Source of the DNA: an uncultured Verrucomicrobiae bacterium
Lineage (GTDB): Bacteria; Verrucomicrobiota; Verrucomicrobiia; Chthoniobacterales; Chthoniobacteraceae
Direction of reading: 5' to 3'
Assembly (NCBI GenBank): GCA_963836755.1
Contig: CAWIKF010000002.1
Location: 2,080,001 to 2,144,000 of the forward strand
DNA: 64,000 nt
Part shown: positions 47,649 through 57,241 of the stretch, piece after piece
Position numbering within the stretch: the stretch's first letter is position 1
Layout of the letters: the number at the start of each line of letters is the position of its first letter
Position numbers and translations under genes: made by a program
Notes under the pieces: model-generated
Database searches by the model: none
The model's input: the letters and a program-made list of their open reading frames with translations, nothing else
Told to the model about the DNA's origin: nothing

Positions 47649-49615
<1,967 letters not shown>

Positions 49616-49660: not shown

Positions 49661-52477
49661 ATGGCGAAACTCCGAGTGCTCGCTAGCGGATCAACTCCAT
49701 CTGCGCGCTCGCAGAAGCGGGGAAAGCTTTTTGAAAGCTTGATGACGGACGTGTTCAGGCGTTTCGGCTACACCTTCAATGGGACGGCGAGCACTAATTA
49801 CTCCGGGATGGAGATAGATATTGATGGCATTCACACAGCTACCAACTTGCCACTTTATGCGGAGTGCAAATGTTACGAGTCAGAAGTTGACTCTCCCAAA
49901 CTACAGGCATTCTTCGGAAAGTATGTTGCTCTTTGGATGAAGGACAATCGGGCACATGGGATTTTTGTCGCGATCCCAGGCATCAATCCCCACGCGAAGG
50001 GATTTTATCGCGACAACTGCGAGGCGAATCCAAAGCTAACGCTTCGGCTTTACCAAGAAGACGAGGTGCTCCAAGCATTAATTGATTCCGGCAAATTATC
50101 CCACCCTTCAACGGTCCCCAAATGCATCCCGCTCGACGTGGGATCGGCGGGCGAACAGTTGACGTTATCAACCGAACTAGGGATTTTCGTGGTTCAATTC
50201 ATTATCCCCACTGGTAGCGCTATCGCCTCACACTTTGCACTATTTGACGCGCGCGGTCAGTTTCTGACGGACCGCGGCTCTATCGAGACCCTAATCGACC
50301 TAGAGCCGGAATTGAAAGCGTTCGAATTCGTATCGCTTGGACCAGAACCACTGATAACTCCCGCCCGAAGCGCGGAAGTGCCTGAAACAATTGTTGAAGT
50401 CAAAGGTAGCTCGTCGTGCTTCGAGTTTCAGTTTCCAGCCTCTCCCGAACATTTCGTGGGCCGCACGAATTTGCGAGGCGAGGTTAAAGACTTCGTTGCT
50501 GACGTTGTGGCCCGGCGAACCGCTGCGAGAGGATTACTTTTTGAAGCCAATTCAGGCTGGGGCAAGAGTTCCGCAGTCCTTTCTTGCGCAGAACATCTTC
50601 GTGGAGTTGGGCATTACTCGGTTGCGATCGACTCTCGCTCGGCGTCGTCCTCTCAATTCATTCTGCGGGTTGTCCAGCACACTGTTCAGGCCCTTCTGGT
50701 TCAGGGCATTTCTCTCAATGGCGCTGACAGCCAGATTTCCGGATTCGATAGTGCGGCGGAAATCCTAGTTAAAATAGGCCAAGAGCTTGCACGACGCGGA
50801 AAGCTACTTGTGATCTTTTTAGATCAATTCGAGAATTTGTTCTTCTTACCCGACGCCTTCAAGCGGATAAGGGACCTTTTCCTTAAGGTAAGCAATGCGG
50901 AGACTAATGTAGTGTTTGGTTTCTGTTGGAAGACAGACCTCGTTGGACTGACTAACGAATTTCCATATCAGCTCCGCGATTCGATTAGGACAGTTAGTCG
51001 GGTCGTTCAGTTGGAAAAGTTCACAGAAGCGGAAACAAGCGAACTTCTGAACAAGCTAAGTGCGGAAATCGGTGCGCCCTTACGAAAAGACCTTCGTTTT
51101 TTCCTTTCCGAGTTTTCACAGGGCTACCCTTGGCTGCTGAAAAAGCTCTGCGCTCATGTAAAATCACAGCGAGAAGCAGGGACGCCACAGATCGCAATCG
51201 CGAATGGACTCCTAAATGTGGAGCAACTGTTTCAAGAAGACTTGAACGGCCTTTCCCTTCAACAGGAAGAAGCTCTTCGCCGAATCGCTAAGCTGGCTCC
51301 GATAGCTATAGCGGATTTGGGTGACGAACTAAGCCCCACCGTCCTTCATAGCTTGATTGATCGGCGTTTGGTCGTGCGTATCGGAACAAAGTTGGACATC
51401 TATTGGGACATCTTCCGTGACTTTCTCAATACGGGTCGAGTTCCAGCTCAAGAGCAATACATCCCTCGACTTGGGACGCGAAGTGTATATCGGGCCTGTA
51501 AGATTTTGGCGGACGCGGGCAAAGCCATCTCAGTTCAAGAACTAGCTACGCGCGCGAAGGTAAGCTCTCAATCGTTCTACAACGTTGCGCACGAGTTTCG
51601 CATGCTTGGCCTTGCTACGATATCCGGCGAACTGGTGTCGTTAAATCCTGCTCTAGCTGCGGCGGCGGATTTTCAGGCAGCATTTCGCGCTTACCTCAGC
51701 GACAAGCTGAAGCGGAATCGTTTAGTTCTGTTGATGCTCGATAAGTTGACTGTCGAGCCTGACTTAAGTGTAGAGCAGATCGGACAGTTTCTCATGAGTA
51801 GCTGCCCATATATTTCGGCATCGGCGTCGAGTTGGGAGGATTACTCGGATATCTTTTGCGACTGGCTGGACGCCGGTGATTTGGCCATTCACGACCGTCG
51901 TGGGAAGAGACTTCGGCGTTATCAACCAGGCACTGAAATCCGGGAGCGACATTTTTCCCGTCTTACCCGGCGAGGGGGAACCAGCGTGCTTCAAGTTCAC
52001 TACGGCCCGGTGGCGGCCGTGGCAAAAGCCCTCGCGCAGATTCTTCATGGTGGAAAATTCGCTTGGCCTCAGATGGGGCCGAGCACCCGACAAAAAGCCC
52101 TGCTTGTCCTCGAGGATTTTGGCTATATCACCCGAAAATCGGGATCTATTACTGTGCTATTGACGCTGAAGCCTTTTGGGCAGCCGGATTTTGATGTCCC
52201 AAAAGCTTTGGGAGATGCCGCGTTAAAGATTGCGTCATTCCGCGAGTTTATAGGCATTCTTTCCAATGACACTGGGAAAAAGAAAAGTCACTTAGAGTTA
52301 GGACGCTTGTTGATGGTGGGTATGAATTCTGAATGGAGCGATGGCACCGCTCAGACAACGTCCAAAATTCTGATGGACTGGGCGCGGCATACAGGTCTTG
52401 CGCGAGGACCTTACGCTAAGTTCGTCCAAAGAAGTGCAAGCGAAGCGGGTTTTACAGCGCAGGCACCACTTTTGTGA
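49661..52477 (+). CDS. Mrr-like PD-(D/E)xK nuclease fused to a STAND-type P-loop NTPase and C-terminal helical/wHTH-like domains
   Basis: RGKLFE..EIDIDG..AECKCY; FVGR, ANSGWGKS, VIFLDQFE, GYPWLL; AT-richer than flanks. Confidence 0.8.
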   Translation: MAKLRVLASGSTPSARSQKRGKLFESLMTDVFRRFGYTFNGTASTNYSGMEIDIDGIHTATNLPLYAECKCYESEVDSPKLQAFFGKYVALWMKDNRAHGIFVAIPGINPHAKGFYRDNCEANPKLTLRLYQEDEVLQALIDSGKLSHPSTVPKCIPLDVGSAGEQLTLSTELGIFVVQFIIPTGSAIASHFALFDARGQFLTDRGSIETLIDLEPELKAFEFVSLGPEPLITPARSAEVPETIVEVKGSSSCFEFQFPASPEHFVGRTNLRGEVKDFVADVVARRTAARGLLFEANSGWGKSSAVLSCAEHLRGVGHYSVAIDSRSASSSQFILRVVQHTVQALLVQGISLNGADSQISGFDSAAEILVKIGQELARRGKLLVIFLDQFENLFFLPDAFKRIRDLFLKVSNAETNVVFGFCWKTDLVGLTNEFPYQLRDSIRTVSRVVQLEKFTEAETSELLNKLSAEIGAPLRKDLRFFLSEFSQGYPWLLKKLCAHVKSQREAGTPQIAIANGLLNVEQLFQEDLNGLSLQQEEALRRIAKLAPIAIADLGDELSPTVLHSLIDRRLVVRIGTKLDIYWDIFRDFLNTGRVPAQEQYIPRLGTRSVYRACKILADAGKAISVQELATRAKVSSQSFYNVAHEFRMLGLATISGELVSLNPALAAAADFQAAFRAYLSDKLKRNRLVLLMLDKLTVEPDLSVEQIGQFLMSSCPYISASASSWEDYSDIFCDWLDAGDLAIHDRRGKRLRRYQPGTEIRERHFSRLTRRGGTSVLQVHYGPVAAVAKALAQILHGGKFAWPQMGPSTRQKALLVLEDFGYITRKSGSITVLLTLKPFGQPDFDVPKALGDAALKIASFREFIGILSNDTGKKKSHLELGRLLMVGMNSEWSDGTAQTTSKILMDWARHTGLARGPYAKFVQRSASEAGFTAQAPLL

Positions 52478-52508: not shown

Positions 52509-53009
52509 ATGAGCACGGACCTCATCCACCCTGCCGTCCGCATCGGGCATGTGCATTTGAAGGTGGCGGACTTGGAGCGGGCGCTTTCGTTTTACCGCGA
52601 TGTGCTCGGGTTTGAAGTGACGCAGCGGATGGGAAAGCAGGCGGCGTTTCTTTCGGCGGGCGGGTATCATCATCACATCGGGCTCAATACCTGGGAGAGC
52701 GCGGGTGGGCGGGCGCCGGCGCCGGGGACGACGGGGCTGTATCACCTGGCGATTTTGTATCCGACGCGGGCGGAGCTGGGCGATGCGTTGCGGCGGCTGA
52801 TGAAGGCGGGCATTCCGCTCGAAGGCGCGTCGGATCACGGCGTGAGCGAGGCGCTTTATCTGCGCGACCCGGATGGCAATGGCGTGGAGCTGTATTGGGA
52901 TCGGCCCATGGAGGAATGGCCGCGCACGCCGGAGGGCGAGCTGGCGATGTTCACGAAGCCGCTCGACGTGGAGTCGCTTTTACTGCTCGTTCCCGAAGCG
53001 CTACGCTAA
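52509..53009 (+). CDS. VOC/glyoxalase-family protein (CatE-like)
   Basis: IGHVHLKVADL, GGYHHHIGLNTW, GLYHLAILYP, DHGVSEALYLRDPDGNGVELYWDRP. Confidence 0.92.
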   Translation: MSTDLIHPAVRIGHVHLKVADLERALSFYRDVLGFEVTQRMGKQAAFLSAGGYHHHIGLNTWESAGGRAPAPGTTGLYHLAILYPTRAELGDALRRLMKAGIPLEGASDHGVSEALYLRDPDGNGVELYWDRPMEEWPRTPEGELAMFTKPLDVESLLLLVPEALR

Positions 53010-55708: not shown

Positions 55709-57241
55709 ATGAAGAAGGACAACGGAAATCCCACGAAAGAACTCTACCAGCAGTTGCGCATGCTCACGTGCGACGAGCTATGGGACAAGGAGGTGACGCG
55801 GTTTAATCGTGCAGCTCCGCGCGAGCGACTGGAAAGAGTGGCCGTCGTGCGTGCGGTAGGTGTGGTCTTCTCGGAATCCGGGACTGAGATTCATAAAAAC
55901 AACGCGCGAAGCTGGCTGCGTGGACTGCTCAATGATCCTGCTGAAAAAATACGACGCTATGCGATCGCGGCCTTACCGAAGATCGGCGCGGGAGTGAACG
56001 AAGAAGCGGAACTTTTATCCCTGCTGGAAACAGCGAAAGTAGATCGCGAGAAGAAGTTTCTAGGTCATGCCCTGGAAAAAATCGGCGGCAGGAGGACCTT
56101 GGAAGTGATCGAGAAAAGTGGACTGGACTTGCAAACTCGTCAGAAGGTTAGAGCCAGTGTCGCACGACATGAGAGTCCTAGCGCGATCCGCATGGCTGCT
56201 GTGGTTGCGAATTACAAAGGACTGCGCATACACCTCCGCGGTCGTGATGGGTTGGAGAGCATCGTGGCTGATGAGGTAAAAGAATCGCCATCGGCGCGGA
56301 AGAAATTCCACGTCGAGCACGTCGGCCGTGGACTAGTAGCCATTACTCCAGCAGCTCCTTTTACACTCGCCGATATCTATCAGCTTCGCTGCTTTGGAAC
56401 CGTCAGCTTCGTTCTAGGTGTGGCAAATAAGTCTCACGAGATGGAAGCTCTCGCTTCGCTCATTACTTCACCACTCTCGCGGCGACTCTTTGAGACCTTT
56501 ACGGAAGGTTCCATTCGCTACCGCCTCGACTTTGTCGCCAAAGGTCATCAAAGAGGCGCGGTGCGGCAGATCGCCAATCGCATTTTTGCCTTATGCCCGG
56601 AGATACTGAATGACGCACGCAACGCTCCGTGGACGATCGCCATTTATGCTGCGGAACAAGGCGGCACGGTGGAGTTAAGTCCCAGGCTAGTTCCCGATCC
56701 GCGTCTCTACTTCCGGCGGCAGGATGTTCCCGCCGCATCGCACCCTCCCCTCGCCGCCTGCATAGCCCGTGTGGCGAGGCAGATGGCTGATGAGATAGTT
56801 TGGGACCCGTTCTGCGGCTCGGGGCTGGAGCTCATCGAGCGGGCGCTGCTTGGCGGAGTTCGCAGCCTTTACGGCACAGACCTAAGCGCCGATGCCATCG
56901 CGACTGCGAGGAACAATCTGGCCGCGGCAAAGCTCGCTCCTATGGAAACAAAGTTTACCTGCGGCGACTTCCGCGACTTTGCTGAGACGTTGAGCCCTAG
57001 CAGCGTCAGCCTCGTGATCACCAATCCGCCGATGGGAAAGCGTGTTCCGATTCCCGACCTGCGCGGCTTGATCGCGGACTTGTTCACCGTGTCGGCGAGA
57101 GTATTGAAACCGGGCGGCCGCCTCGTGTTTGCCAATCCATTTCGGATGGAAAGCCCTTCCCGCTCCTTGAAGCTCCAGTTCCGGCAAAGGGTGGATTTCG
57201 GTGGCTTCGATTGCTGGCTGGAGAAGTATCTGAAGACTTAG
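55709..57241 (+). CDS. HEAT-repeat plus class I SAM amino-methyltransferase (RlmL/Trm14-like)
   Basis: LLNDPAEKIRRYAIAALPKIG; WDPFCGSG motif I; TNPPMG motif IV; LKPGGRL. Confidence 0.8.
   Translation: MKKDNGNPTKELYQQLRMLTCDELWDKEVTRFNRAAPRERLERVAVVRAVGVVFSESGTEIHKNNARSWLRGLLNDPAEKIRRYAIAALPKIGAGVNEEAELLSLLETAKVDREKKFLGHALEKIGGRRTLEVIEKSGLDLQTRQKVRASVARHESPSAIRMAAVVANYKGLRIHLRGRDGLESIVADEVKESPSARKKFHVEHVGRGLVAITPAAPFTLADIYQLRCFGTVSFVLGVANKSHEMEALASLITSPLSRRLFETFTEGSIRYRLDFVAKGHQRGAVRQIANRIFALCPEILNDARNAPWTIAIYAAEQGGTVELSPRLVPDPRLYFRRQDVPAASHPPLAACIARVARQMADEIVWDPFCGSGLELIERALLGGVRSLYGTDLSADAIATARNNLAAAKLAPMETKFTCGDFRDFAETLSPSSVSLVITNPPMGKRVPIPDLRGLIADLFTVSARVLKPGGRLVFANPFRMESPSRSLKLQFRQRVDFGGFDCWLEKYLKT

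Follow-up and report, generated by a model that had tools for sequence, protein, structure and literature searches.

A nuclease-STAND NTPase with a duplicated, predicted restriction-type recognition module is a candidate DNA-triggered anti-phage receptor

Avs proteins are NLR-like anti-phage receptors. For Avs7, oligomerization of the ATP-bound STAND domains has been shown, and the Avs triggers identified so far are all proteins; Avs22-24 are protective with no known protein trigger (Lee et al., PMC13581612). Paired winged helix-turn-helix (HTH) domains are described in other defense systems: BrxA is a paired winged-HTH reader whose likeness to FokI, BpuJI, and SspB has been stated (PMC12839542), and Menshen NsnA carries paired winged-HTH sensors (PMC12065111). 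END nucleases, in turn, are a methylase-free, Type IIS-like defense (PMC12191111). Here, we report a 938-aa nuclease-STAND protein encoded in a 64,000-nucleotide stretch of an uncultured Verrucomicrobiae bacterium (assembly GCA_963836755.1, contig CAWIKF010000002.1, positions 2,080,001 to 2,144,000, forward strand; the window, to whose numbering the coordinates below refer), the C-terminal sensor of which is a duplicated double-HTH unit. An original prediction, made from these letters alone, had proposed a nuclease-STAND defense protein with an atypical sensor. We give about even chances to the view that this is a stand-alone anti-phage NLR-like protein switched on by DNA through its sensor units. 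Its layout is nuclease, accessory domain, STAND NTPase, and two double-HTH sensor units:

49661..52477, + strand: nuclease-STAND-sensor gene, a single open reading frame (ORF) of 938 aa
49661..50095, + strand: Mrr-like PD-(D/E)xK nuclease, aa 1-145 (E25, D53, E68, K70; Pfam Mrr_cat; conservation)
50096..50380, + strand: acidic, fast-evolving accessory domain, aa 146-240 (charge and identity; no Pfam match)
50381..51448, + strand: STAND module (Pfam nSTAND1; invariant motifs), comprising a nucleotide-binding domain (aa 241-455), a helical domain with GxP (aa 456-522), and a winged helix (aa 523-596), with sub-boundaries placed from the motifs
51449..51928, + strand: sensor unit 1, aa 597-756, a winged HTH plus a second HTH (structural model, fold search, DUF7226 profile)
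51929..51994, + strand: basic, Arg-rich linker between the units, aa 757-778 (charge in homologs)
51995..52420, + strand: sensor unit 2, aa 779-920, a second copy of unit 1 (hhalign, DUF7226)

Sensor residues 597-920 are two copies of one ~145-aa double-HTH unit. Unit 1 aligns with unit 2 in hhalign over 140 columns (Prob 98.8%, E 7e-17), the first HTH pairing with the third and the second with the fourth, and the remaining non-overlapping segment pairs stay at Prob <32%. With a unit profile built from the family, 210 of 220 full-length proteins show two units and the other 10 show one. The AlphaFold2 model of aa 597-920 (62 sequences; mean predicted local distance difference test (pLDDT) 94, predicted template modeling score (pTM) 0.83) has four HTH/winged-HTH domains, in line with the tandem winged helices originally proposed for this tail; the lack of obvious TPR or WD40 repeats proposed there also held, with no Pfam match to either in the protein at E<=0.1. 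When the sensor unit model was searched against 48,161 PDB representative chains, the best match was N.BspD6I (Z 9.6, root-mean-square deviation (rmsd) 3.7, 154 aligned), second among all chains was BrxA (Z 8.8, rmsd 3.1, 146 aligned), and then came FokI residues 9-270 (Z 8.5, rmsd 3.9, 155 aligned), the BpuJI DNA-binding domain (Z 8.1, rmsd 3.7, 151 aligned), and, fifth, the uncharacterized Magnetospirillum protein 3bhw (Z 8.0, rmsd 3.5, 145 aligned); SspB matched at Z 6.5 over 153 residues. The matches to N.BspD6I, BrxA, FokI, BpuJI, and SspB span the whole unit, while most generic HTH rows, of the MarR/ArsR type, cover half of it, aligning 50-110 residues. Sequence identity to these fold neighbors is 10-15%. 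From its model, the unit is thereby predicted to fold like BrxA, SspB, and the recognition domains of Type IIS enzymes. The linker is net positive in 91% of 138 homologs and the last HTH is net basic in 82%. Two homologs carry additions that we noted by eye: a C-terminal extension with motifs resembling a subtilisin-type protease (L138:241-3567, 1108 aa) and a short extra HTH-like tail behind the two units (L154:7833-10781).

Profile comparison relates the same units to Type II restriction enzymes through DUF7226, a link to which an Atlas lead below 0.9 first pointed. This domain forms the C-terminal part of ~425-aa DUF6996-DUF6997-DUF7226 proteins, which match the PADLOC REase_II model (PDLC03513) at E 4e-150. 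Among 84 loci examined, many of them near-identical, a Dam-family methylase adjoins the DUF7226 gene in all 46 that have 1 kb or more of flank per side, and it does so in 5 of 5 plasmid loci. We consider DUF7226 to be probably the recognition domain of these enzymes. A DUF7226 profile of 17 diverse rows, judged against 40 block shuffles, matched unit 2 at Prob 94% and E 9e-8 (score 43.6 vs a block-shuffled maximum of 21.3) and unit 1 at Prob 86% (37.1 vs 16.2), and on these profiles both sensor units appear homologous to DUF7226. Pfam AAA_assoc_C matches unit 2 in many homologs, and one DUF7226 protein is also above the AAA_assoc_C cut-off. Some database records name these Type II REase-like DUF6996-DUF6997-DUF7226 proteins (L160-L163, L170-L254) 'translation elongation factor' or 'transcriptional regulator'.

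The gene is intact, with no internal stop. Pfam Mrr_cat matches its N-terminal region at E 9e-8 (aa 21-118). Among 147 aligned full-length homologs (20-59% identity), D53 is invariant and E25, E68, and K70 are kept in at least 90%. These results bear out the Mrr-like PD-(D/E)xK domain that had been read there. The switch motifs named in the same reading are invariant as well, i.e., G267-R268 (FVGR), G299/G301/K302/S303 (Walker A), D388/E391 (Walker B), and G488/P490 (GxP). Its ANSGWGKS Walker A, which had been called a 'variant', is the commonest form among close homologs (97/136). Pfam nSTAND1 (PF20703; the domain is named in PMC8195603) matches aa 261-470 at E 2e-6 (27.9 bits vs a cut-off of 27.1) and scores 30-43 bits in six homologs, the first half of the model alone being matched. 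NACHT has no match in the 938-aa protein and reaches 24.3 bits, vs a cut-off of 26.7, in one homolog. The STAND NTPase is the most conserved part of the protein, with a mean identity across homologs of 36-46% vs 23-27% for the sensor. The accessory domain, aa 146-240, has a median net charge of -5 and the lowest mean identity of the protein's regions (21%); speculatively, it may contribute to autoinhibition.

The family very probably defends against phages. Viral contigs supplied 22 of its loci. In L141 and L151, the family gene stands alone between psu and the integrase of P4-like satellites (PHROGs; annotated E. coli locus), and L142-144 and L149 share the L141 protein and layout (of them, L143 alone was partly scanned); the P4-satellite homologs fall on two separate tree branches. 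In L134, L139, L145, and L150, the gene adjoins replication and/or portal genes of P2-like prophages. These two sites are the P4 and P2 anti-phage hotspots that Rousset et al. 2022 (PMC9122126) defined, and 7 of 19 hotspot cargoes tested there and 6 of 8 tested in PMC13586616 protected against phage. The L141 protein is E. coli WP_000113630.1 (913 aa), which is 29% identical to the 938-aa protein over 669 aa, is homologous to it over the nuclease, the NTPase, and both sensor units, and occurs in 54 of 5,426 complete E. coli genomes. Table S1B of PMC9122126 gives it as P4-hotspot system 13, 'AAA_35/Mrr_cat', 'NLR-like', with 97 occurrences; the accessible text of that paper mentions 'C-terminal repeats' and says nothing of what the sensor of system 13 is. 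Because the start of its sequence is found in Table S1B alone among nine supplement files, WP_000113630.1 apparently lies outside the systems tested there. DefensePredictor (2026, PMC13092281) scores WP_000113630 at 8.5 log-odds, with the accession in Table S10 alone. Hotspot occupancy, mobility, neighbors, and this outside prediction support the single-gene phage defense originally put forward.

The family is thus already listed as a candidate (Table S1B, Table S10), and the identity of the sensor is the new element; so far as a full-length match to a named system is concerned, PADLOC 2.0 and NCBIfam gave none. In a literature search that most subscription papers fall outside, we found no description of a STAND protein with this sensor or architecture, no statement in print of DNA sensing by this family, and no experimental test of WP_000113630, nor is the family mentioned in the accessible parts of PMC13586616, PMC11754643, and 10.1101/2025.09.30.679545. 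The names Avs22-24 are absent from the readable supplement files of PMC13581612. The family may be one of Avs22-24, though we consider this improbable.

A large protein set returned 420 matches among 7,999 scored candidates, with 119 of 120 among the matches listed near full length, and a profile search at E<=1e-30 gave 485 representatives, a count that includes fragments. Relatives are encoded in 230 stretches of GTDB genomes, of which the 80 retained come from Acidobacteriota, Chloroflexota, Thermodesulfobacteriota, Actinomycetota, Pseudomonadota, cyanobacteria, and archaea. None of 60 relatives of the host genome has a full-length match, one having a nuclease-only match, and in a FastTree tree of 83 rows two Acidobacteriota sequences form a group with the 938-aa protein (SH 99). 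Outside Desulfobacteraceae, the GC content of the family gene is below that of its flanks in 40 of the 43 loci where flank length sufficed. The two nearest ORFs per side were scanned at 52 loci (182 of 187 ORFs, the other five overlapping the family gene): a restriction-modification (RM), toxin-antitoxin, Abi, KAP, HNH, AAA_21, or TIR-STAND gene is a neighbor in 11 loci, a count that has no matched control, and an integrase, resolvase, relaxase/type IV secretion, transposase, or intron reverse transcriptase gene in 10. RM genes adjoin 4 of the 52 and differ in type, and 3 of 102 family loci have a Dam-like gene, at a distance of 5-7 kb. A conserved partner gene was considered and rejected, as the widely shared neighbors among 80 loci are confined to one Desulfobacterales clade. 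GenBank phages had no match to the family. Nine members had no Avs match in PADLOC 2.0 (the 938-aa protein at E<=1, eight homologs at E<=1e-8); the PADLOC mREase_IV model gave a weak match to the catalytic domain alone (aa 17-116, E 4e-4) and none in the eight homologs. NCBIfam and PHROGs had no match to the 938-aa protein, and sequence searches of the PDB found no relative, with weak HTH, P-loop, and FokI rows at most. Among proteins of 169-581 aa, the size range to which the search was confined, no stand-alone or otherwise fused sensor was found, the four matches being apparently fragments. A 606-aa cluster in the ESM Atlas combining Mrr_cat, nSTAND1, and NA-iREase1 is perhaps a shorter sister family that lacks the sensor units.

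Since the sensor is predicted to fold like restriction-enzyme DNA readers, sensing of foreign DNA rather than of phage proteins is likely. We infer that the ligand of the family is rather probably DNA, in either form, and the recognition-domain fold and DUF7226 homology lend specific support to the nucleic-acid sensing through HTH domains suggested in the original prediction, which we keep as conditional. The fuller picture, a prokaryotic NLR-like receptor switched directly by DNA, in which a duplicated restriction recognition module sits on a STAND switch with no methylase, has somewhat less than an even chance. In such a receptor, the two restriction-enzyme-type modules would bind invader DNA; going by Avs biology, binding would release autoinhibition, the ATP-bound STAND domains would then oligomerize, and the clustered N-terminal nucleases would cut DNA. 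The invader would be destroyed by this cutting, and so, probably, would the host chromosome, an abortive outcome that is the least certain step. As there is no cognate methylase, self and non-self would have to be told apart by modification state, DNA structure, or dense sites on replicating phage DNA, and two tandem units would need two sites or one long site, which would set a threshold. A Dam-based self-mark in the host was rejected, no Dam-family gene having been found in its genome.

Several observations weigh against DNA-triggered defense. The Z scores of 8-9.6 are at the edge of the range reached by unrelated helical folds, the fold search barely covered unit 2, and Foldseek against the PDB gave no match at E<=0.001; its rows include SelB and UFL1, and winged helices also bind RNA and proteins. 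The DUF7226 match varied with alignment depth, narrower profiles giving Prob 33-75%, and a merged two-unit profile reached Prob <5%. A BrxA profile of 6 sequences had no profile-profile match to the sensor. The first two HTHs are marginally basic, net positive in 54-57% of homologs. In a 20-row Desulfobacterales clade (L029-L047, L051, L060, L064, L078), the gene occupies one fixed locus beside a conserved 140-aa ORF, its GC is host-like (below the flanks in 1 of 7), and the nuclease motif has drifted, with DCK for ECK in 12 of 20, so domestication of this clade is possible. Inheritance in this clade is vertical.

Three other explanations have to be weighed against the same evidence. The record of protein triggers in every Avs with a known one (PMC13581612) would suit a protein-sensing, Avs-type receptor whose restriction-like modules are a decoy for a DNA mimic or some other protein of the phage, the binding of which triggers the nuclease. 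PARIS, from the same P4 hotspot, has the anti-restriction protein Ocr as its trigger (PMC9122126), sequence change is faster in the sensor than in the NTPase, and no cognate methylase protects self DNA; the protein has no TPR, WD40, or FGE sensor, however, and its fold neighbors are DNA-recognition domains, with a basic linker and last HTH; we regard such a decoy as unlikely. A Type IV-like modification-dependent or site-specific enzyme, restricting in cis with no killing of the cell and using the NTPase as scaffold or loader, would share the Mrr-like nuclease, the weak mREase_IV match, and the recognition-domain fold, would need no methylase, as is the case for END nucleases, and would agree with the RefSeq name of a homolog, 'restriction endonuclease'. 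Yet a full STAND signature, GxP and winged helix included, is the most conserved part of the protein, and the PADLOC match is limited to the catalytic domain; we rate this explanation as unlikely too, slightly below the decoy.

A role outside phage defense, whether as a mobile-element nuclease of selfish or addiction type or as a domesticated DNA-binding regulator, is very improbable in our judgment. It could draw on the many homologs in integrative elements, plasmids, and prophages and on the Desulfobacterales clade described above, but no antitoxin partner accompanies the gene, the family sits in hotspots with phage-protective cargoes, and the catalytic residues are kept outside that clade. 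A DNA-switched, stand-alone receptor is the reading that we carry forward.

The codon usage of the gene is foreign to its genome. Against 895 mechanically called ORFs of at least 400 aa in the same genome, its GC (0.512 vs a median of 0.588) and GC at third codon positions (0.528 vs 0.709) are in the lowest 2%, and CTA+TTA+ATA+AGA make up 4.0% of its codons vs a median of 0.7% (top 1%), which agrees with the AT-richer gene with rare codons first noted. It starts 45 bp from the thiC stop, i.e., directly after thiC as had been said, with a glyoxalase/VOC gene downstream; the nearest methyltransferase gene (55709-57241) is of the RlmKL-like/UPF0020 type, in keeping with the claim that no DNA methyltransferase is adjacent. 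The thiC gene in the window (47649-49615) is two overlapping frames with small indels vs a same-genus genome, one of them a single extra base; the alternatives are an error in sequencing and a real frameshift. The two flanking genes supply what look like the arms of a cargo slot:

49474..49614, + strand: 3' end of thiC, left arm of the slot (91% copy elsewhere in the genome)
52522..52601, + strand: VOC/glyoxalase gene, 5' end, forming the right arm (an 89% copy ends the second cassette)

A second cassette of the same genome (C2:1290416-1292609, L159:12416-14609) runs from a 141-bp thiC tail (91%) through a GmrSD_N/NsnA-like gene and a HEPN gene to an 80-bp VOC head (89%), beyond which lies a Type ISP enzyme; on its other side is a mobile-looking block (PD-(D/E)XK, WGR-ligase, beta-clamp-like, DUF932). 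In the closest relative, G002, a genome of the same genus, a different, 514-aa gene lies between thiC and the VOC gene, and the DNA behind thiC varies between relatives, often holding ParE/Phd, MNT-HEPN, GmrSD_N/NsnA-like, or methylase genes. The differing cargo of relatives and the same two arms in the second cassette make the slot seem exchangeable between two homologous arms. The empty thiC-VOC site proposed for relatives was not seen among them, the closest holding other cargo. Some relatives have stacked extra thiC 3' ends ~0.8-2 kb apart, up to five matches per contig, which often begin at the ATG of the last ~44 codons (L113-L119: G014:C473, G001:C387, G024:C16, G054:C3, G005:C154, G029:C22, G046:C222), and G001 has two VOC heads in tandem (G001:C106). 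Behind thiC in G001 lies a pentapeptide-repeat plus ion-channel gene (L114:526-1407), a domain pair described for one Hailong-like component (PMC13586616).

The family is a concrete and directly testable candidate, with a natural E. coli member and defined residues to mutate. If the DNA-switched receptor is real, it would show by what route an NLR-like switch came to have the DNA reader of restriction enzymes as its sensor and how, with no methylase, a cell can distinguish self from non-self, restriction-type DNA reading and NLR-type amplification being joined in one protein from E. coli satellites to archaea; the family might also yield a DNA-triggered nuclease.

Compared with known systems, the protein resembles Avs3, Avs4, and Avs7-24 (PMC13581612) in its N-terminal nuclease, central STAND, C-terminal sensor, single gene, and mobility. 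Unlike TPR-type Avs such as Avs4, its sensor is two double-HTH units and not TPR, WD40, or FGE, and we do not file it under Avs1-5, given this sensor and the PADLOC result. P4-hotspot system 13 (WP_000113630.1) belongs to the same family and was listed as a candidate. Type IV Mrr and mREase_IV enzymes share the catalytic domain alone, with no full-length match. The DUF6996-DUF6997-DUF7226 Type II enzymes have, in their DUF7226, a putative homolog of each sensor unit; they differ in their single unit, the lack of an NTPase, and the Dam-family methylase next to them, and the 938-aa protein is not a Type II system, as it has the restriction-type reader and lacks the methylase. With the Type IIS readers FokI, N.BspD6I, and BpuJI, and with BrxA and SspB, it shares a two-HTH DNA-recognition fold, as predicted at moderate Z; unlike these readers and NsnA, which have no such arrangement, it carries the module in duplicate, fused behind an active-type STAND NTPase, with neither methylase nor multi-gene complex.

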